Origin: Nanobdellota archaeon
GTDB lineage: Archaea; Nanobdellota; Nanobdellia; Woesearchaeales; JBHPGL01
Direction of reading: 5' to 3'
Assembly (NCBI GenBank): GCA_042570655.1
Contig: JBHPGL010000002.1
Span: 1 to 47,883 of the forward strand
DNA: 47,883 bases
Position numbers and translations under genes: made by a program. Positions 34,314-43,795 of the stretch are shown here, in pieces. The notes under the pieces were generated by a model. That model was not told where the DNA came from and made no database searches. It worked only from the letters and a program-made list of their open reading frames with translations. Each line of letters begins with the position of its first letter. Position 1 is the stretch's first letter.

Positions 34314-37300
34314 ATGAGAGATACAGGTAAAATGAAATTACCAAAAATAATAACAATATTTGCATTATTCATTTTGTTAGTGACAACAGTAATGGCAGCA
34401 ACAATATCAAATTGTCAAACAATTAGTACACCTGGCACTTATGAATTAATAAATGACATAAGTGCAACCGCTACTTGTTTAACTGTATCTAACGACGATA
34501 TTCTTATTGATTGTAAAGGTTATACTATTACATATGCAAATACAAGTTCAGGAAATGGCATCTATACTTTAGGTAATGATAATGTAACAATTCAAAATTG
34601 TAATATTAGACAATATAAAACTCCAGGATCTTATACAATTTATTTAAGTGGAAATAATAATTATGTATTAAGAAACAATATTACTAATTTAGATTCAACT
34701 TCAATTTATTTTGCAAGTTCAGGAAATATAATAAATAATATTATTAATAATTCATATGCTTTTTATGATCAATACGGAATAAATTTATATGCATCGTCAG
34801 GAGGTAATATATTTAATAATACTATTTATTCCAAAACTAAAGGTATACATATATTCGTACATTCGGGTGAAACATTAAAATATAATAAAATTAATAGCGA
34901 TTATTTTCCAATTACATTTGAAACTAATGGTGAAGCTCATTGTAACCATAATATTGATACAACAAATACTTATTATGACACCCCTATTTATTTTAATAAA
35001 ACTGATTATTATAAATTAGAAGATACAGATAATATTGGTGCAATTATTTTATGTGGTTCAAGTCATGCTTTTATTGATAATGTATCGTTAGATAAAGCAG
35101 GAATATTTATTGCGCAATCAGAAAATGTAACAATTAAAAATAGTGATATTAAATCAAATTCATCAGCTATATTTCTTGATAAATTCACAAATAATTTTAC
35201 AATTGAAAATAATGAATTAAACTCTGGAACAACAGCAGCTGAATGTGGGGGAATTTATTCAAGGAATCAATTTGATTATGGTAAAATATTAAATAATAAT
35301 ATTACATGTTTAAGTACAAATAATTGTTATGGTATTTATTTCGCAACTTATTCAAATGATAATAATGTTACTGGCAATATTATAAAAGACTTTAGATACG
35401 GATTTTCAATTACAACTAACGGTTACAATAATTTATTATATAACAATTATTTCAGAGTAAGAAATGCATATGCTACTTTCACAGGAACTTCGTATTATAA
35501 TGATTTAAACATTACAAATACTACTGCTACAAATGTTATGGGAGATAATAATATTGGTGGAAATTATTGGGGTTTTTATAATAGTACAGGATTTTCAGAT
35601 ACTTGTACTGATGCTGACTTAGATAATTTTTGTGATTCTCCTTTAGTATTAAACACCAATAATACAGATTACTTACCTTTAGCACATGAATCTCCACCAA
35701 CCCATGATACTCCTGCATTAAGTGCCAGTTCAATTAATAATCTAACGTCAGATAATTTAACTGTTTACAACCAATCCACTAGTGATAAAAATGGAGATCC
35801 AGTTAAAAATATTATTAATTGGAAAAAGAATTCACAATCAAGATATATAATTAACACTCCATTTGAAGCAGGTTCAACAAGTTCATATTCAAAAGATTAT
35901 TCTGGTTATGGAAATAATATTCAACCAGATACAAGTATGTGTACATATTTAAGTAATGGTGGAATTGATGGAAAAGGAGCTTATTACTTCCCAGGTACTT
36001 GTGGATTAAAAGTCCCTGTATCAACTTCAACTGCATCTTATACAGATAGAATGACAGTAGCAGCTTGGATAAATATATCTGATTACACTCTTCATAGACC
36101 TGTTGCAAATATTTATCAAGCCTCTAATTATCCAATCCGATTTTATGTGATTCAAACATCAGGTAAGTTAACATTGCAAGGTTATAATTCCTCTTTTGAT
36201 GCTTACTCAAGCATAACATCAACAAGTACAGTTACACCAAACCAATGGCACCATGTCGCATTTACTGTTGGCGATGGATTAGGAACAGTATATATAGATG
36301 GTCAGAATGAATCTTCTGGATTAATAGTGGGTGATTTGCATGCACAAACCTCAGTACCTTTAAGAATAGGATATGATACCGGAGGAGCTCCTTTATATAT
36401 GAAAGGTTACATTGACGAATTTATTTTTACAAACATTACTTTATCATCAGAACAAATTGCTGCATTATATAACAACAGAACAGATTTAATAGTTAGTCAA
36501 GAAACTTCGAAAAGTGATTCATGGCAAGCTTGCATAACTCCAAATGATGGAACACAAGATGGTCAAACAAAATGCAGTAATACTTTAACAATTCAAGGAC
36601 CTCCAACACATACAACTCCATTATTGCAATCATCATCAAATACAAATAAATCAGATGAAAATATAACAGTATACCCTCAAAATCTAGTTGATCCAAACGG
36701 TCATGATGTTAAAAAGATAATTAGTTGGAAAAAAGATACTAATCCTATAGAAATTCTAAATATTCCTTTTGAAGGCGGTTCAAATACTACATATACAAAA
36801 GATTATAGTGGATATAATATTCCAGTAACAGTAAACTATACATCATGGCAAAGTAATGGCGGTTATGATGCAAAAGGAGCATATTTATTTAATGGTATAA
36901 ATGATTATATAGCTCTGCCAGATAATATTTATGATACCCATACAGAAGGTGTCATCAGTATGTGGGTAAATCCAAAAGAATATAGCGGATATCCTTTTGC
37001 ATTAGCTAATTCAGTCTCAGGTTCTAATATCTTTCATTTTCAGATAAGAAATGACTCAGCAAATTGCGCTTCTGGATCTGTATATTGTTTGCATGTTGGG
37101 AGGTATGTTGGTGGTCTAGGTACAAGGACTACTTATGGTTCAATTACTATTCCATTAAATACATGGACACACATTGCATTTTCAGTCAATTCAACTGGTT
37201 CAAATACGTACATTAATGGAGTAAAGGATACTAATGTTTATCATAAGCTCTTTAGTTTAACTGACAATTCTTGGTTTGATAATTTTGCAACAACAACAAA

Positions 37301-39515
37301 TACTTATACCATAGGTGCAGGTAGAGGAGCATTTTTTCAAGGAGCTTTTAACGGCTCTATAGACGATGTAAGAATATATAATGTTTCATTGTCTGATCAA
37401 CAAATAACATTATTAGCTCAAAATAGAACAGATATGATAGCTAGCCAAGATACTACTGTTGGTGATGTTTGGCAAGCATGTGTAACTCCTAATGATGGTT
37501 TTGAAGATGGAACAGAACTATGCAGTAATACCTTAAATGTATTAGCATCAACTGAAGGTCCATCTGGAACATATTTAACTAATTCAACTATTAGCCAAAG
37601 ATTTAGTTTTTTAAATGTAAGTTCCACTCTTTATGGCCTTGACTTTAATTATAATATTGCTGCATTAGAAGTTGATGCATCAGAATTTACCTGTACACCT
37701 TCAGCTTTTATTCCAGATGTAGAAAACCATTATTCAACAGTTGATAATGGTGATGGCACTTGGACAACTATATTCCAGCCAAATGGAACTTATGGTAAAG
37801 ATGCAGTTATTGCAATCGGAGATGATCATTTTAGTCAAAATTTAAATTATGGTAATGATGAAAGGTTAAGGACAAGAATGGTCTCAACTTCCACATATGT
37901 TGAAAGATCATATATTGAATTTGAAATAGATATACTTGATACAGAAAATATTATAAACGCAAAATTAGATTTATATAAAGGTTTAAATTCAGGTACTCCA
38001 CCAACATATAGTACTGGCATTTATAGAGTTACTGAATCATGGGATGAATCAATTATAAAAGGTACTAATTATCCTAGTAATGATTCAATTTCTTATGATA
38101 GCATTTCAGTAATATCAACTCTTAAATGGTATAATTGGACAATAACAAATCTTGTTCAAGAATGGGTAAATGAAACATATCCTAATTATGGTTTATTACT
38201 TCAAAAAGATCAAACAGGAGGATTTGGTTGGCATCAATATAATTCATCAGACGCAGGAGGATCAAGACCAATACTAAGTATCACATATGTACCTAATTGT
38301 GATAAAGGCATATTTACTTCACAAGTATTCGATACAAATGGAACACAAGATTTCAAAAACATAACCTGGACAGAATTTGAAGGAGAACTTCCTAATAACC
38401 AACAAACAGAATCAAGATCAGTATCTGAAAATATTGATATGTCAAACAATATTTTCTTGTTGCATCTAAATAACAATCCGGCATTTAATGAAAACACTTC
38501 TTATCTAAAAGATTTTAGTGGAAGTGGATACAATTGTAATCAAAGCACAGGTTCAAATAAAGCTGAATACACAGATAATAGTAAATTTACTAGAGCATTA
38601 AAATTAGATGAAAATGATGTTTATGAATGTGGAGATATTGACGAAATTGACGGTGCAACAGAATTAACCTCTACATATTGGATAAATTGGTCAGGAGATG
38701 GTTATAGTGTTATTGGGGCAAAATGGAGTACTAATACTGCTTATTGGTTAGATATTAATTCAGGTAATGTACGGGTTGGTTGGGATCCAGTCACACTTGA
38801 ACAAGCTAATGTAGAGTTACTACCAAATGTATGGGCTCATGTTGCAATTGTTTATAATGGTTCTAAAACAGTCACAGCTGATAGATTTAAATTTTATATA
38901 AATGGAACAGAAGTACCTTCCTCAGGATCTACACCTCCAACACAACTATCTGATGATGGAACAGAACCATTTAGATTTGGATATTCAGGAGGTAATCAAG
39001 GACCAAACTCTACATTGGACGAATTCGCACTATGGGATACAGCTTTAACTGCAACAGATGTATCAAATTTATATAAAAGAGGATCAATCAATCTTGACCT
39101 AAAAGCAAGAACTTGTGATGATGCTTCATGTAGCGGAGAAGCATGGGTGGATATTGACGACCAAGGTTACCAAGCAAAATCTTTATCTCTTGACGACAAC
39201 CAATATTTCCAATATAAATTTTATTTTGAAAATAGCACTTCACAAATCTTCCCAGAACTTTATAATGTAACAGTTACGTATGAAGCAGTATCTACAGGAT
39301 GTGAACCTCCAGGATCAGGTGATTGGAACATTACAGATATATCTTGTATTGTTCAAGATCAAACATATGATGTTGACGGAGATATTATAGTTAATGCAGG
39401 TACAACCTTAGTATTAAACGGTACAACTAGATTAAACTTCTCAAGTACAAACCAATATATCTATGTTAATCAAGGTGGCGAAATACAAATATCAGATACA
39501 GCTTCATTAAATTAA
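34314..39515 (+). CDS. Secreted multidomain lectin/adhesin-like protein: beta-helix + 3 LamG + DNRLRE(CBM96-like) domain
   Basis: Signal peptide; NosD-like beta-helix ending GGNYWG...DYLPL; LamG motifs WHHVAF, WTHIAF and WAHVAI; DNRLRE-like segment (KDAVI...NYG...RSYIEF...WDE...ITNLVQEWV...NYGLLL...RPILSITY). No C-terminal TM helix. Starts 1 nt after the fibre stop. Confidence 0.82.
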   Translation: MRDTGKMKLPKIITIFALFILLVTTVMAATISNCQTISTPGTYELINDISATATCLTVSNDDILIDCKGYTITYANTSSGNGIYTLGNDNVTIQNCNIRQYKTPGSYTIYLSGNNNYVLRNNITNLDSTSIYFASSGNIINNIINNSYAFYDQYGINLYASSGGNIFNNTIYSKTKGIHIFVHSGETLKYNKINSDYFPITFETNGEAHCNHNIDTTNTYYDTPIYFNKTDYYKLEDTDNIGAIILCGSSHAFIDNVSLDKAGIFIAQSENVTIKNSDIKSNSSAIFLDKFTNNFTIENNELNSGTTAAECGGIYSRNQFDYGKILNNNITCLSTNNCYGIYFATYSNDNNVTGNIIKDFRYGFSITTNGYNNLLYNNYFRVRNAYATFTGTSYYNDLNITNTTATNVMGDNNIGGNYWGFYNSTGFSDTCTDADLDNFCDSPLVLNTNNTDYLPLAHESPPTHDTPALSASSINNLTSDNLTVYNQSTSDKNGDPVKNIINWKKNSQSRYIINTPFEAGSTSSYSKDYSGYGNNIQPDTSMCTYLSNGGIDGKGAYYFPGTCGLKVPVSTSTASYTDRMTVAAWINISDYTLHRPVANIYQASNYPIRFYVIQTSGKLTLQGYNSSFDAYSSITSTSTVTPNQWHHVAFTVGDGLGTVYIDGQNESSGLIVGDLHAQTSVPLRIGYDTGGAPLYMKGYIDEFIFTNITLSSEQIAALYNNRTDLIVSQETSKSDSWQACITPNDGTQDGQTKCSNTLTIQGPPTHTTPLLQSSSNTNKSDENITVYPQNLVDPNGHDVKKIISWKKDTNPIEILNIPFEGGSNTTYTKDYSGYNIPVTVNYTSWQSNGGYDAKGAYLFNGINDYIALPDNIYDTHTEGVISMWVNPKEYSGYPFALANSVSGSNIFHFQIRNDSANCASGSVYCLHVGRYVGGLGTRTTYGSITIPLNTWTHIAFSVNSTGSNTYINGVKDTNVYHKLFSLTDNSWFDNFATTTNTYTIGAGRGAFFQGAFNGSIDDVRIYNVSLSDQQITLLAQNRTDMIASQDTTVGDVWQACVTPNDGFEDGTELCSNTLNVLASTEGPSGTYLTNSTISQRFSFLNVSSTLYGLDFNYNIAALEVDASEFTCTPSAFIPDVENHYSTVDNGDGTWTTIFQPNGTYGKDAVIAIGDDHFSQNLNYGNDERLRTRMVSTSTYVERSYIEFEIDILDTENIINAKLDLYKGLNSGTPPTYSTGIYRVTESWDESIIKGTNYPSNDSISYDSISVISTLKWYNWTITNLVQEWVNETYPNYGLLLQKDQTGGFGWHQYNSSDAGGSRPILSITYVPNCDKGIFTSQVFDTNGTQDFKNITWTEFEGELPNNQQTESRSVSENIDMSNNIFLLHLNNNPAFNENTSYLKDFSGSGYNCNQSTGSNKAEYTDNSKFTRALKLDENDVYECGDIDEIDGATELTSTYWINWSGDGYSVIGAKWSTNTAYWLDINSGNVRVGWDPVTLEQANVELLPNVWAHVAIVYNGSKTVTADRFKFYINGTEVPSSGSTPPTQLSDDGTEPFRFGYSGGNQGPNSTLDEFALWDTALTATDVSNLYKRGSINLDLKARTCDDASCSGEAWVDIDDQGYQAKSLSLDDNQYFQYKFYFENSTSQIFPELYNVTVTYEAVSTGCEPPGSGDWNITDISCIVQDQTYDVDGDIIVNAGTTLVLNGTTRLNFSSTNQYIYVNQGGEIQISDTASLN

Positions 39516-39901: not shown

Positions 39902-40663
39902 TTATTTATTATCCCATAATTTCATGAATAATAAATTTAATACTAACATTAACACAACTCCTGAAATTAAAGAATAAAATATTAAACTAAAAAAACTAGT
40001 AAGGCCTAATAACATTAATATTGATGCAACTAAAACACTTCCAAAAAACATAAAATATGCCAAAGGATATGCAAAAAACATTCTTGATCCGTCTAATGGC
40101 GGAATCGGTAATGCAGTGAATATTGCCATTAAAATATTTATTATAATTGCTTTCTCAATAAATATATTATTCAATGCTGTTAAACTAATCAATTTAAAAA
40201 TAAACGCTAAAACCAAATTAGCAATTGGTCCTGCCATACCTACAAAACCATAGGTCCAAACATTTTTTCCGTAACGAAAATAACCTATCCTGTGAAATGC
40301 CATCATTGATAAAACAACACCTCCAGGCAAAATTAAAATTAAACTACCTCTAGAAACAAGAACAACCAATAATGCCAGCATTATACCATAATACCATGGT
40401 TTAAATTGAGCTTTGAAACCTAATTTTAATGCATAAACCTTTTGTATGACAACATGTACAATAAATGCAAGTGCAACAATAAGTATCATCCCAATTAAAT
40501 GTTGAACCCAAATACTATCAATAACATGGATGGTAGCTCTACCATCGTCGATACCAAACATAAATCCAATTACGAGTATTGCAACAATTAATCCTTGAAT
40601 TTCACTTTTACTAAATGTAAAATATCTTTTTACTTTATCGTACCAATTATATGATCCATACAT
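39902..40663 (-). CDS. Site-2 protease (M50)-like membrane protein with degenerate active site
   Basis: AGPIANL and ALPIPPLDGSR match M50 motifs, but the HExxH position reads HVVIQ. The ATG at 40663 is preferred over the GTG at 40684. Confidence 0.8.
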   Translation of the reverse strand: MYGSYNWYDKVKRYFTFSKSEIQGLIVAILVIGFMFGIDDGRATIHVIDSIWVQHLIGMILIVALAFIVHVVIQKVYALKLGFKAQFKPWYYGIMLALLVVLVSRGSLILILPGGVVLSMMAFHRIGYFRYGKNVWTYGFVGMAGPIANLVLAFIFKLISLTALNNIFIEKAIIINILMAIFTALPIPPLDGSRMFFAYPLAYFMFFGSVLVASILMLLGLTSFFSLIFYSLISGVVLMLVLNLLFMKLWDNK

Positions 40664-40724
40664 AATAAAATAGAAATTCTTCACACTTTTAAATATTTAC
40701 TTTTTACCAATACCAATAGTATTA

Positions 40725-40848
40725 ATTTTTACACTACTGCCAATTTGCATAATTGACTTATTTCATAGAATCAGCGAATCGACCTGAGGATAAACTTTAG
40801 GTTATCCGAAGTTGAGAAGTAGTTAATGCCTGGTAGTAGTGTAAAAAT
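40725..40848 (+). ncRNA. Unknown structured RNA motif, copy 1
   Basis: 18-bp closing stem ATTTTTACACTACTGCCA / TGGTAGTAGTGTAAAAAT. Core homologous to 41645-41769 with compensatory changes. TTTTAAATA lies ~30 nt upstream. Confidence 0.7.
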
Positions 40849-40865
40849 ATTTTAGAAATAAATTA

Positions 40866-41585
40866 TTATTTCCCCAAACTTTTCTTATCAATCAACATAT
40901 TCAAATGAACCAACCTTCTAACCTCATCTTCATGACCCGCACCCATAATAGCTAGAATTTTATCATTAGGATTTTTCTCCATAATCTTAACCAAATTATT
41001 AGCCATAACTTCATTCCTTTCCTTAATCAAAACATTGTGTAAGTTAGGATACCTCACTTTGATTTGTTTAATCATTAATTTAATAATCTTTTTAGGCGGA
41101 ACTTTTGACAAATCTAACTTTTTAGGATCAAAACCCATTTTTTTCATTTCTCTCTTTCTAAAAAATATTCCTCTGAACAAATCACCGATAAATCTAAACT
41201 TTTCCCGCCAAGTTAATGTTTTTGTGAATCTTTTCATAGTAATTCTAATATCTTGATCAATTAAAGCTAACTTTTTCTTTTGTTTTTTTGCAAGATTAAC
41301 TGCGAGTAACATTTCAGAACCAGGCTGCATTCCAACTAAATTACCCAGTTTTTTCTGAACCCAACCAGCAATTAAAGTGAAGAAATAACCAGTAACTCCA
41401 ATTTGTCTTATAGCTTCAATTGCGCTACCTTTCTTTTTTTGATTTAGTAAAGAATATAATCTACCTTGATCTAATTCAACAGCAATTATATCTGGATTAC
41501 CATCTAAAACATGTCTTTCAACATTTTCATAACTCTGTTTAGCTATATGGCTTGATCCAATTATTGTAAGATTTTTTATTGACAT
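40866..41585 (-). CDS. traB: TraB/PrgY/GumN (Tiki-like) family protein
   Basis: IIGSSH, PDIIAVELDxGR, GSEM, IDQDI, ERNxVMA and AIMGAGH are the motifs of the archaeal TraB family. Confidence 0.9.
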   Translation of the reverse strand: MSIKNLTIIGSSHIAKQSYENVERHVLDGNPDIIAVELDQGRLYSLLNQKKKGSAIEAIRQIGVTGYFFTLIAGWVQKKLGNLVGMQPGSEMLLAVNLAKKQKKKLALIDQDIRITMKRFTKTLTWREKFRFIGDLFRGIFFRKREMKKMGFDPKKLDLSKVPPKKIIKLMIKQIKVRYPNLHNVLIKERNEVMANNLVKIMEKNPNDKILAIMGAGHEDEVRRLVHLNMLIDKKSLGK

Positions 41586-41644
41586 ATCCTTAATTTTTGA
41601 ATATTTATATATAAATGCTTCGTTTAATTATATAATATAATAAT

Positions 41645-41769
41645 ATTAAACACTATTGCCTGTATTGCATAATCAACGTGCTTCGCAGAATAAACTATTC
41701 GACCTGACGAAAGGTTATTCAACCTTGAGTCAGTTGAGAGGTAGTTAATGCTTGGTAATAGTGTTTAAT
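41645..41769 (+). ncRNA. Unknown structured RNA motif, copy 2
   Basis: 16-bp closing stem ATTAAACACTATTGCC / GGTAATAGTGTTTAAT. Shares TTGCATAAT, AGAAT, TCGACCTGA, AGTTGAGA and GTAGTTAATGC with copy 1. TTTATATATAAA lies ~30 nt upstream. Confidence 0.7.
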
Positions 41770-41843: not shown

Positions 41844-42121
41844 TAGGAAGGCTAGACTGGTGCGTTAGTCCTGCGCTGTTACCTCAAACGGGCTATATGG
41901 AGGAGTCGAAGCTTGAGAAGCGGTACTTGTCTTGATTATTGGTCTTGGTCTGGACAATGATTATCTGTCCTTTGGGATCGATGTTTTAGAAAATCACGTC
42001 AGATCTGGAAGGAAGCAGCGTTAATCTTTAATATTGGTGCTCTTAGGGTAGCGGATTTGAGGAAAGATCAGGGTTAAACCAGTAGTTAAGGTTTGTACTC
42101 ATTTTCAGGTGTGCCTTCCTA
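41844..42121 (+). ncRNA. ffs: Archaeal signal recognition particle (7S) RNA
   Basis: Terminal helix TAGGAAGGC / GCCTTCCTA; Alu-like 5' domain (GGCTAGACTGG...CTGTTACCTCAAAC); helix 8 motif TCAGATCTGGAAGGAAGCAGC; 278 nt long; TTTATA box ~25 nt upstream. Confidence 0.9.
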
Positions 42122-42325: not shown

Positions 42326-43270
42326 ATGGCAGAACCATCACAAGAAGAAATTCTTGCACAACAAAAAGAACAATGTCCTTTTTGTAAAATTGTTAAAGGT
42401 GAAATTCCTTCTAATAAAGTTTATGAAGACGATTTATTAATTGCTATCGCAGACATCTACCCTTCCCGGCCAGGCCATATTCTATTATTACCAAAAGAAC
42501 ATTATCCGATTATGCCGTTAATACCTCAAGATACATTTATTGAACTTTTTAAGAAAGCAAAGATGTTAAGTAAATCAATGTCAGAAGGTCTTCTTGCATT
42601 TGGTTCAACAATATTCATTGCAAATGGCGGTCCAGCAGGCCAGCAAAGTACACATTTTATGATCCATATAGTTCCAAGGGACGAAGGTGACGGTCTTAAT
42701 AACTTTAATATTCCAGATAATCCTGTTACAAAAGAAGAAATGGAAAAAGTTTATCCTTCATTATCAAATAACCTTAAAATAATGATGCAAAACCATCAGG
42801 CAAGAATGGGTGGTGGAGCAGCAGCACAACCAGCTGAAGGCCAAATGCCTCAAACAATAACAAAAGATCAGATATTAAAAATCATTGAAGCTAATCCACA
42901 GTTAAAACAATTCATCCTTGAAAAACCTGAAGAATTTAAAAAAGCAATTCCTTCTACACCGCAGCTGCAGCAACTGTTTAAAGATGTTGATGTAAATGAA
43001 ATCATTGCATTAGTTAGAGGAGAAAAATACGAGAAAAAAGAAGAGACAAAAGAAGAAGCTAAAGAAGAAGAAAAGGAAGAAAAATCAGAAGATCAAGACG
43101 AAAAAGAATCAGATGAAGAAGCAGTAAAAAATGAATTATCAGGTGAATCAGACGAAGACAAAGACGAAGAAGAAAGTGAAGAAGAAAAAACTGAACAAGA
43201 AAACGAATCAGATGAAACTGAAGAAGATGAAAATGTAAATATGGACGATATTGCAAACTTATTCAAATAA
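42326..43270 (+). CDS. HIT-family protein with degenerate triad, helical STI1-like segment and acidic tail
   Basis: CPFCKIVKGEIPSNKVYED, PGHILLLPKEH, and ANGGPAGQ then HFMIHIVPR. Long E/D-rich C-terminus. Confidence 0.85.
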   Translation: MAEPSQEEILAQQKEQCPFCKIVKGEIPSNKVYEDDLLIAIADIYPSRPGHILLLPKEHYPIMPLIPQDTFIELFKKAKMLSKSMSEGLLAFGSTIFIANGGPAGQQSTHFMIHIVPRDEGDGLNNFNIPDNPVTKEEMEKVYPSLSNNLKIMMQNHQARMGGGAAAQPAEGQMPQTITKDQILKIIEANPQLKQFILEKPEEFKKAIPSTPQLQQLFKDVDVNEIIALVRGEKYEKKEETKEEAKEEEKEEKSEDQDEKESDEEAVKNELSGESDEDKDEEESEEEKTEQENESDETEEDENVNMDDIANLFK

Positions 43271-43282
43271 AAAATTAATAAA

Positions 43283-43795
43283 ATGACAGAATGCGAAATA
43301 TGTAAACAAATAGAGAATAAAGAAAACATCTTATACGAAGATGAAACAACTGTAGCAATACTTTCAAACAAATCAATGCCAGGACATATAGAAGTTGTTA
43401 CAAAAAAACATATAATTAGTATTGATGAACTTGAAGATGACGATGTTGTTAATCTATTTTATCTTGCATCTTATGCTGCAACAGCTGTCTTTGAATTCTT
43501 GCAGGCGCATGGAACAAATATTGTTTCAAACCAAGGTAGATTTACTGGTAACCATTTTACAATTGACGTATTTCCAAGATTTCAAGAAGACGGATTCAAC
43601 TTTATGTGGGAACCGCAAAAGTTGGAAGAAAACTTAATTAAAGAACCTATTGCAAAAATTATTGATAAATTACCTATTGCAGGTGCAGCAACTGAATCAG
43701 CTCCAAAAGAAGCAGTTGAACAAAAAACAGATGTAATTAAAGAAAAATCTGATAAAGTTAATTATTTATTAAAACAATTAAGGCGAATTCCATGA
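43283..43795 (+). CDS. Second degenerate HIT-family protein
   Basis: CEIC...ILYEDE...PGHIEVVTKKH; the triad region reads HFTIDVFPR. Confidence 0.8.
   Translation: MTECEICKQIENKENILYEDETTVAILSNKSMPGHIEVVTKKHIISIDELEDDDVVNLFYLASYAATAVFEFLQAHGTNIVSNQGRFTGNHFTIDVFPRFQEDGFNFMWEPQKLEENLIKEPIAKIIDKLPIAGAATESAPKEAVEQKTDVIKEKSDKVNYLLKQLRRIP

Follow-up and report, generated by a model that had tools for sequence, protein, structure and literature searches.

The DNA examined here is a stretch of 47,883 nucleotides (the window; contig JBHPGL010000002.1 of assembly GCA_042570655.1) from a Nanobdellota archaeon of the order Woesearchaeales, in which two copies of a repeat of roughly 125 nt lie on either side of a gene of the TraB/PrgY/gumN family (Table 1). 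A sequence-only reading of the window had described the two copies as a duplicated, covarying RNA motif flanking this gene, and had offered a new small RNA, a ribozyme-like RNA or a small mobile repeat as explanations. Both copies were located on the + strand at the positions then given. They are 74% and 91% identical over two conserved blocks, and a 26-nt block shared at their 3' ends has two exact occurrences in the window and none in 100 shuffles. As developed below, we consider it probable that the repeats form a family of transposable elements of the miniature inverted-repeat type (MITEs) in this order of small-genome archaea, carrying a selected RNA fold as cargo. Two covariance models were used throughout, one (R1) made from the source genome alone and the other (R2) from several genomes.

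Table 1. The two repeat copies, their structural parts and the adjoining genes, in window positions
Feature	Position	Strand	Remarks
Repeat copy 1	40725..40848	+	nhmmer E 9e-28; model R1 127.3 bits
Copy 1, A+T-rich P1 extension, 18-bp inverted repeat	40725-40742 / 40831-40848	+	included in the copy span
Copy 1, P1 5' strand ACACTACTGCC	40731..40741	+	partner 40832-40842; 11/11 pairs covary; 97.8% of cells paired
Copy 1, P1 3' strand GGTAGTAGTGT	40832..40842	+	
Copy 1, P2 5' strand GCAT	40747..40750	+	partner ATGC 40826-40829; GCCY/RGGC in relatives
Copy 1, mini-hairpin ATTTCAT and conserved AGAA	40760..40770	+	consensus GYUNCRCAGN'A; mutual information pairs 39-45 and 40-44, crossing pair 42-48
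Copy 1, conserved box TCGACCTGA, tandem G.A, P6 and conserved GAAGTTGAGAAG	40779..40819	+	
Copy 1, variable hairpin P6	GGATAA 40788-40793 / TTATCC 40802-40807	+	
Repeat copy 2	41645..41769	+	nhmmer E 1.9e-24; model R1 115 bits
Copy 2, P1	41650-41660 / 41754-41764	+	
Copy 2, P2	41667-41670 / 41748-41751	+	
Copy 2, mini-hairpin GCTTCGC	41680-41686	+	
Copy 2, box TCGACCTGA	41699-41707	+	
Copy 2, P6 with tandem G.A	41704-41733	+	
TraB/PrgY/gumN-family gene between the copies	40866..41585	-	outside the element; PF01963, E 1.1e-17
Membrane protein, upstream neighbour of copy 1	39902..40684	-	outside the element; weak peptidase M50 match PF02163, 25.3 bits, below the 27.2 cut-off

On the + strand the folding energy is -44.3 kcal/mol (z -8.6) for the first copy and -44.0 kcal/mol (z -6.1) for the second, and none of 200 shuffles was as stable; the - strands (-31.6 and -30.7 kcal/mol) are clearly weaker. 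The compensatory changes that the sequence-only reading had noted between the closing stems are readily visible in the pair (ACTAC/GTAGT versus ACTAT/ATAGT, and TTTTT/AAAAA versus TTAAA/TTTAA), as is the tandem GA/GA below the variable hairpin of both copies. RNAalifold predicted 29 pairs on 41 copies, 19 of them with compensated changes, and mutual information calculated over 91 copies recovered the closing stem P1 (11 bp), P2 (GCAU/AUGC) and the variable hairpin P6. It also returned unexpected pairs, G39-C45 and Y40-R44, which make up a mini-hairpin, and N42-N48, which crosses both and is U-A in 87 copies, A-U in 4 and C-G in relatives. In a curated structure for 41 source-genome sequences, 92.3% of cells are paired versus 81.2% after shuffling, and 166 cells are changed on both sides versus 44.6; none of 500 shuffles reached the observed values, which bears out the earlier claim of a selected structure. 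Sliding the partner by 1-3 columns lowers the pairing to 23-49%. Unpaired cells make up only about 2% of P1 in the source genome. Among 154 P1 pairs compared between mutual nearest neighbours there, 41 are compensated, 8 wobble and 11 broken, where a neutral simulation gave 9, 23 and 54. A cross-genome alignment of 24 sequences gives a comparable picture, with 94.9% of cells paired versus 74.6% shuffled, covariation at all 11 P1 pairs, and a third P2 pair (columns 28-189 of alignment A4) that is C-G in 12 sequences, A-U in 11 and G-C in 1. Four helices are strongly supported by covariation, namely P1, P2, the mini-hairpin and P6 above the tandem G.A.

Across these four helices, G-U pairs number 65 versus 28 A-C mismatches (binomial p 1.6e-4, which is indicative as the cells are not independent). 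The + strand is favoured because such an excess is unexpected from a strand-symmetric process acting on DNA, and both this count and the folding energies agree with the strand assigned by the sequence-only reading. A further helix that it had proposed, TATTTC/GAAGTA becoming TGCTTC/GAGGTA, found no support across the 91 copies; its 5' bases instead form the mini-hairpin, through A-U and U-A pairs in copy 1 and G-C and C-G pairs in copy 2. This helix, which lies between GYUUC and GAGRG and was also the choice of RNAalifold, was rejected, since A39 stands opposite C99 in 7 copies and U42 covaries with A48 instead of A96, the A42 variants being compensated at position 48. An extra helix UGAC/GUUA in the interval from P2 to the mini-hairpin is just 61.6% paired as aligned. 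The alignment likewise speaks against reading the tandem G.A as a kink-turn, as it is a symmetric 2x2 loop lacking a 3-nt bulge. Peripheral hairpins are inserted at four sites with the core untouched, these being the tip of P6, the position after GCAUA (5 source-genome copies), J3/4 (in the relative G235) and the interval between GAGAGG and AUGC (about 14 copies). The five insertions after GCATA (at C15:7270, C15:12772, C90:3519, C4:14850 and C51:3324) have a common stretch of 48-94 nt with the hairpin TCGCTAA...TTAGCGA.

No Rfam family matches either window copy, neither at the gathering threshold nor at E<=10, in agreement with the earlier statement that the motif matched no family known to the reader. 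Candidates of the 5S rRNA, C/D, H/ACA and tRNA-like types and known ribozymes were rejected on the basis of this lack of an Rfam match, the lack of any tRNA within the window and the location of the 5S candidate elsewhere in the genome. That candidate is the sole one of the source genome (locus L009, C6:11151-11317); it scores 33.9 bits, below the Rfam gathering score of 38, and covers 167 nt against a model of 120 positions, pointing to an inserted segment or an atypical 5S rRNA.

The repeat is not confined to the window. The source genome (1.64 Mb in 195 contigs, 29% G+C, 79.6% complete) has dozens of matches to it by BLAST, and iterated nhmmer gave 99 matches in all, of which 98 reach E<1e-10, with extracted copies of 105-194 nt when a 4-nt flank on each side is counted. 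Placed against a simple call of open reading frames (ORFs; 1561 ORFs, 89% coding), 94 of the 98 copies are intergenic, and all four orientation contexts relative to the neighbouring genes are populated (26, 23, 21 and 16 copies, with a few more at contig ends). At roughly 130 nt each, the 98 copies take up about 0.8% of the 1.64-Mb genome and about 7% of its non-coding part, reckoned as 179 kb of intergenic DNA. Core sequences are 66% identical in the median pairwise comparison, nearest neighbours have a median of 78%, and no two copies exceed 84%. The family, in being short, non-coding and present in many dispersed copies, has the size and copy number of a MITE; the same dispersal, as opposed to one copy per cassette, argues against an integron attC array. 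No multi-copy protein family was found in the source genome, where the largest cluster has 4 members, and Pfam searches of seven paralogue-cluster members returned Bro-N (two), FtsZ, TrmB and, for three, no match. The sequence-only reading had tied the duplicated pair to traB. Copy pairs within 1.5 kb number 13, as compared with 14.2+-3.3 under random intergenic placement, and since such pairs are no commoner than chance would have them, the flanking of traB is unremarkable; the position of the window copies on either side of the gene is a coincidence.

The search for further homologues that the sequence-only reading had proposed was productive, with relatives in five genomes of the order and on one metagenome contig. 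R1 had no matches in 40 relatives from other families; a sample of another 150 genomes from the order gave matches in G068 and G115 only. With R2, the first sample of 150 genomes again gave these two, and a second sample gave 5 of 150, adding G238, G235 and G185; copy numbers in the five relatives are 27, 7, 1, 1 and 1. Of two pattern scans of metagenomes, the first was empty and the second gave a pair of contigs, only one of them with a true match, a single copy of 85 bits (L177) directly 3' of the end of an ORF. Viral contigs gave no matches with either pattern, and a loose pattern scan of genome contigs gave single chance matches only. The elements of the relatives have 45-71% G+C versus 34-41% in the source genome, and the blocks GYUNCRCAGRA, YRACCUGA and GAAGYKGAGRRG are retained despite this shift. 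P1 is wholly different in sequence, yet 98.5% paired, and P2 passes from GCAU/AUGC in the source genome to GCCY/RGGC in the relatives. The inner core, which is not a palindrome, is thus kept across 29–70% G+C (the genomes themselves range from 29% to about 65%), while the terminal repeats differ between genomes.

Evidence of mobility is most direct in G068. Conservation there continues outside P1 as far as an outer stem of 15 bp, GGGGTTGGTGCGAAA...TTTCGCACCAACCCC; the flanks farther out are unrelated. Among 20 copies fetched, both ends could be located in 19, and a direct repeat exactly at the ends agrees at 8 of 8 positions in 10 of these 19 copies, at 7 of 8 in 6, at 6 of 8 in 2, and is lacking in 1. 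Agreement at 7 or more of 8 positions, seen in 16 of 19, occurs in 0.9% of a control with mismatched flanks, in which 8 of 8 never occurs. The target-site duplication in the relatives is 9 bp long. The lone copy of G238 has GGGGTTGTTGCGAAA ends and a perfect 9/9 duplication, AGTCTTATG, and the terminal repeats of G238 and G115 are of the same type as those of G068, so that one terminal repeat is common to three families. The end motif of G068 occurs only in pairs 127-245 nt apart, apart from a few solos; no transposase borders the solo end in G068 (L237) or an end-like site in G115 (L272).

One G068 locus (L265, 763-2096) is a complete insertion sequence of 1334 bp, encoding a 316-amino-acid transposase of the IS5 family (NF033579, 148.5 bits) between perfect 15/15 terminal repeats TGGGGTGTTGCATAA and flanked by a 9-bp duplication, TTCTCCATG. 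Its ends are alike in pattern to the MITE ends GGGGTTGGTGCGAAA, and the duplications are equal in length. On these sequence features the two would stand in the classic mobiliser relation, with the G068 insertion sequence as the candidate mobiliser. Near the left end of the insertion sequence lies a 96-amino-acid ORF of no known family on the opposite strand. Because R2 fails to match the insertion sequence, the inner module is cargo and no remnant of it. An autonomous element of the IS5 type was not found in G115, where two loci (L270 and L271) have the same ends GGGGTTGGTGCGAAA around an unrelated interior of about 130 nt; at a G235 locus (L274), a 55-nt element consists of the ends only, with some 20 nt enclosed. 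With such different interiors inside the same ends, the ends behave as an interchangeable shell for different cargoes.

Two further observations concern the interior of the G068 copies. J2/3, made up of the 11 nt that follow the P2 5' strand, is far more variable than the remainder of the otherwise 88-93% identical copies, and no complementarity between this loop and the target duplications was apparent by eye. At least 6 copies also harbour, in or beside J2/3, a second module that is about 117 nt long, has two hairpins and occurs in both orientations (L238-L244, e.g. C26:23716-23962); seven such loci were fetched, and at an eighth, C114, the view was limited to the interior of the insert. By its appearance it may be a small element inserted into the first.

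In the source genome every copy has an inverted repeat, with a core stem of 11 bp and a paired run of 5-29 bp by the extension rule. Of 91 copies, 8 have GTCAA at a distance of 12-45 nt upstream of P1, 10 have TTGAC downstream, and 6 have both (with the motifs reversed as a control, the counts were 1 and 2). The two motifs form part of ..CTAAGTCAAGT.., an outer repeat that lies some 24 nt beyond P1 and is distinct from the ends in the relatives, and of the six copies that have both, about five show 8-10-bp duplications. Furthermore, exact 7-mer direct repeats 15-32 nt from P1 are present in 12 of 91 copies, as compared with 3.9+-2.2 in controls. The copies with intact duplications have a median core identity of 66% and are as divergent as the family at large, from which it follows that much of the core diversity predates insertion. 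Of the three options offered by the sequence-only reading, the small mobile repeat fits best, in view of the terminal inverted repeats and 9-bp duplications of the relatives; MITE status is directly evident in those genomes and likely in the source genome.

It is reasonable to postulate the following course of events. Outer inverted-repeat arms would enclose an inner module, about 95-115 nt long, which the 11-bp stem P1 closes off in turn. A DDE transposase acting in trans would recognise the terminal repeats and insert the element through a 9-bp staggered cut, the IS5-family insertion sequence being the candidate source of that transposase in G068. The selected and strand-specific nature of the fold is given by the covariation; that the module works at the level of RNA, as a product of the element's + strand, is our inference. 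Its compact fold would include a tandem G.A, possibly a hairpin with a GAGA tetraloop, and a very small pair of pseudoknot type. Such a fold may be kept for a benefit to the spread or retention of the element, most likely by offering, on transcripts that traverse the element, a platform for protein binding or processing.

A number of observations weigh against a MITE with an RNA cargo. In most of the 91 copies there is no excess over background of target duplications beside the visible inverted repeat, and therefore most source-genome copies are either old or have A+T-rich ends that could not be delimited. The window copies show no target duplication beyond chance, the candidate TATAATAAT/TATAATTAT of copy 2 being at chance level, and they are probably old, immobile members. 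The linked transposase that the sequence-only reading had suggested looking for did not materialise, as a search of the 80% complete assembly of the source genome found no transposase of the IS5/IS4 DDE_Tnp_1, IS256, IS6, TnpB or Y1 type. The putative link between the MITE and the IS5-family element consists of similar ends and equal duplication length. As for the fold, the terminal inverted repeats of MITEs covary between families in any case, one transposase having to recognise both ends, and part of the cross-genome signal at P0/P1 could stem from shared transposase binding. The 3' block GAAGUUGAGAGG has three competing partners, namely CGAC upstream, CAG upstream and a local hairpin GUU-GAGA-RGY with a loop of the GNRA type (the best-fitting partner in G115), and its pairing is ambiguous. 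Last, the orientation of the copies relative to neighbouring genes is random, and the promoter-like motif TTTAWA is also frequent downstream of the copies in the same orientation (26 of 91), uncorrelated with the boxes upstream.

A bolder variant, to which we give some tentative credence, would place the weight of selection on the RNA and not on the transposon ends. The inner module would then be a new class of autonomously folding functional RNA, either a protein-recruiting scaffold or a ribozyme, that was captured by at least two unrelated sets of MITE ends and spread to about 100 loci of a small archaeal genome.

The main rival, which we regard as unlikely, dispenses with an RNA function altogether. 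The repeats would be a purely selfish MITE, the hairpin being needed at the level of DNA or kept complementary by gene conversion from arm to arm, and the similarity of the interiors between genomes would be due to horizontal spread and not to selection. The terminal repeats and target duplications, the lack of orientation bias relative to genes and the patchy distribution (2/150 and 5/150 genomes) all accord with it, and the single terminal repeat common to three families suggests transfer. When mutual nearest neighbours are compared (14 couples of copies), the difference amounts to 34% of positions in P1 versus 20% in the inner part, yet P1 remains complementary, as arm conversion or an exchange of interiors would yield. 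The selfish reading is less able to account for the interior, which is non-palindromic and keeps unpaired blocks and covarying internal helices across 34-71% G+C. Nor does a process acting on double-stranded DNA predict the ratio of 65 G-U to 28 A-C, and the module sits in two unrelated terminal repeats, GGGGTTGGTGCG.. in the relatives and ..CTAAGTCAAGT.. in the source genome, the former of which also holds other interiors.

It is improbable, in our estimation, that the copies are stand-alone small RNA genes with promoters of their own and a cellular function, expanded within the lineage and in some cases secondarily captured by MITE ends. The divergence of the duplication-bearing cores to the level of the whole family would fit such genes, as would the lack of any copies more than 84% identical in combination with some 2% of P1 cells being unpaired, and the occurrence of a single copy in three genomes. 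The TATA-like boxes claimed in the sequence-only reading belong here. A TTTAWA box beginning 30-48 nt upstream of P1 is present in 30 of 91 copies, as opposed to 15 of 91 in antisense geometry and about 12.5 expected by arithmetic from random intergenic DNA (about 3.3 per 5-nt bin per 91 sequences). The boxes are enriched upstream but not specific to sense promoter geometry, in light of the downstream boxes noted above, and the claim of a dedicated promoter is not supported. Against such genes, moreover, all examined G068 copies and the lone G238 copy lie within terminal repeats with target duplications, and 148 of 150 sampled genomes of the order gave no match to the repeat, a distribution unlike that of a core cellular RNA.

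That the module is a novel catalytic RNA, self-cleaving or otherwise, which excises itself from read-through transcripts in the manner of hammerheads in retrozymes, is very unlikely. Highly conserved unpaired nucleotides stand beside covarying helices, peripheral hairpins are tolerated at four sites with an unchanged core, and the tandem G.A, the possible GNRA hairpin and the pseudoknot-like pair are of a kind with such molecules. No Rfam ribozyme matches at E<=10, however, and the CUGA...GAA blocks are unlike a hammerhead core (a hammerhead reading was rejected from the alignment, the spacing being unfit), nor can a cleavage site be named; the 80% complete source genome contains no detectable reverse transcriptase. 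Finally, movement as single-stranded DNA by a Y1 (HUH) transposase, in the fashion of REP/REPIN-like or IS200/IS605-type elements, is scarcely credible, for although the structure is strand-specific and Y1_Tnp has 5 matches in G068 and 1 in G115, 56 of 151 genomes of the order have this domain whether or not they carry the element, the source genome with its 98 copies gave no match to it, TnpB (PF07282) is in none of three genomes tested, and the 9-bp target duplications are of a kind that such types are not known to make.

Some further features of the window are recorded here as observations. An archaeal signal recognition particle (SRP) RNA (RF01857, 133.3 bits, E 2.7e-30) lies at 41845-42120 on the + strand, 76 nt 3' of copy 2, with a TTTTTATA box about 25 nt 5' of its start; it is the sole Rfam match near the copies. 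An ORF of 1733 amino acids (34314-39515, +) begins with a signal-like segment and has many N-x-S/T repeats, and judging from its sequence it probably encodes a large surface protein. Two adjacent ORFs (42326-43270 and 43283-43795, +) have N-terminal halves that are alike by eye (C-x-x-C, then ...GH(I/L)..(V/L)..K.H) and may encode paralogous HIT-like proteins, the first with a long acidic tail.

With two covariance models and explicit ends, small-genome archaea of the DPANN type, which are hard to grow and poorly annotated, now have a defined and searchable element, and its MITE family is linked to a candidate mobiliser of the IS5 type. The source genome is otherwise devoid of detectable insertion sequences of the transposase families tested. 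The question raised is why a complex, non-palindromic fold is conserved inside interchangeable transposon ends. If the fold is indeed a functional RNA, it would be a case of a structured RNA that uses DNA transposons as its vehicle.

It remains to set the repeats beside known systems. REPINs, which accompany RAYT transposases, are near-perfect doublets of a 20-40-nt palindrome and are not known to have target duplications. The present repeats resemble them in amounting to about 100 intergenic, hairpin-forming copies per genome, and differ in having an asymmetric interior, target duplications and no specific linked Y1 gene. Elements derived from IS200/IS605, or omega RNA, differ in a comparable manner, given the inverted repeats and duplications seen here and the lack of TnpB in the three genomes tested. 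Other parallels are found among bacterial repeats. ERIC (enterobacterial repetitive intergenic consensus) has longer variants with insertions at fixed internal sites, a trait shared with the repeats described here. The transcribed repeat bcr1, found in the Bacillus cereus group, measures about 155 bp, lies between direct repeats of 5 bp and shows compensatory changes; it and ERIC, or intergenic repeat units (IRU), of enterobacteria (about 127 bp, flanked by TA) are MITE-like with structure or effects at the level of RNA (PMC3184786). The likeness extends to the size of about 120-160 nt, the dispersed intergenic copies and the compensatory changes that preserve a fold. Our repeats are archaeal, with other ends and another duplication length, and they are known from DNA sequence, whereas bcr1 and ERIC are known as transcribed. 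They differ further in their core of three helices, their long conserved unpaired blocks and their very wide range of G+C.

Few archaeal MITEs are known, among them SM1-SM4 of Sulfolobus (PMC10969869); a bulk census includes a 'Woesearchaea' genome at 105 MITEs per Mb (PMC11602168), and archaeal MITEs receive a passing treatment elsewhere (PMC13343696). The present family is likewise non-autonomous and archaeal, and the census indicates that a high density in a genome of the DPANN type had been noted before. Full-text literature searches gave no description of the repeat family, its fold or its cross-genome core, though the element may be listed unnamed in the census (PMC11602168). Prokaryotic MITEs derived from or mobilised by IS5-family insertion sequences provide a close comparison, being short, non-coding and intergenic, with 1 to about 100 copies per genome, terminal inverted repeats, 9-bp duplications and, as in G068, ends similar to those of an IS5-family element that the genome also carries. 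The 9-bp duplication is presumably that of the IS903 group within the family. Unlike such MITEs, the archaeal element has an interior that is no deletion remnant of an insertion sequence, that is more conserved between genomes than the ends which enclose it, and that recurs in the source genome inside a different terminal repeat.

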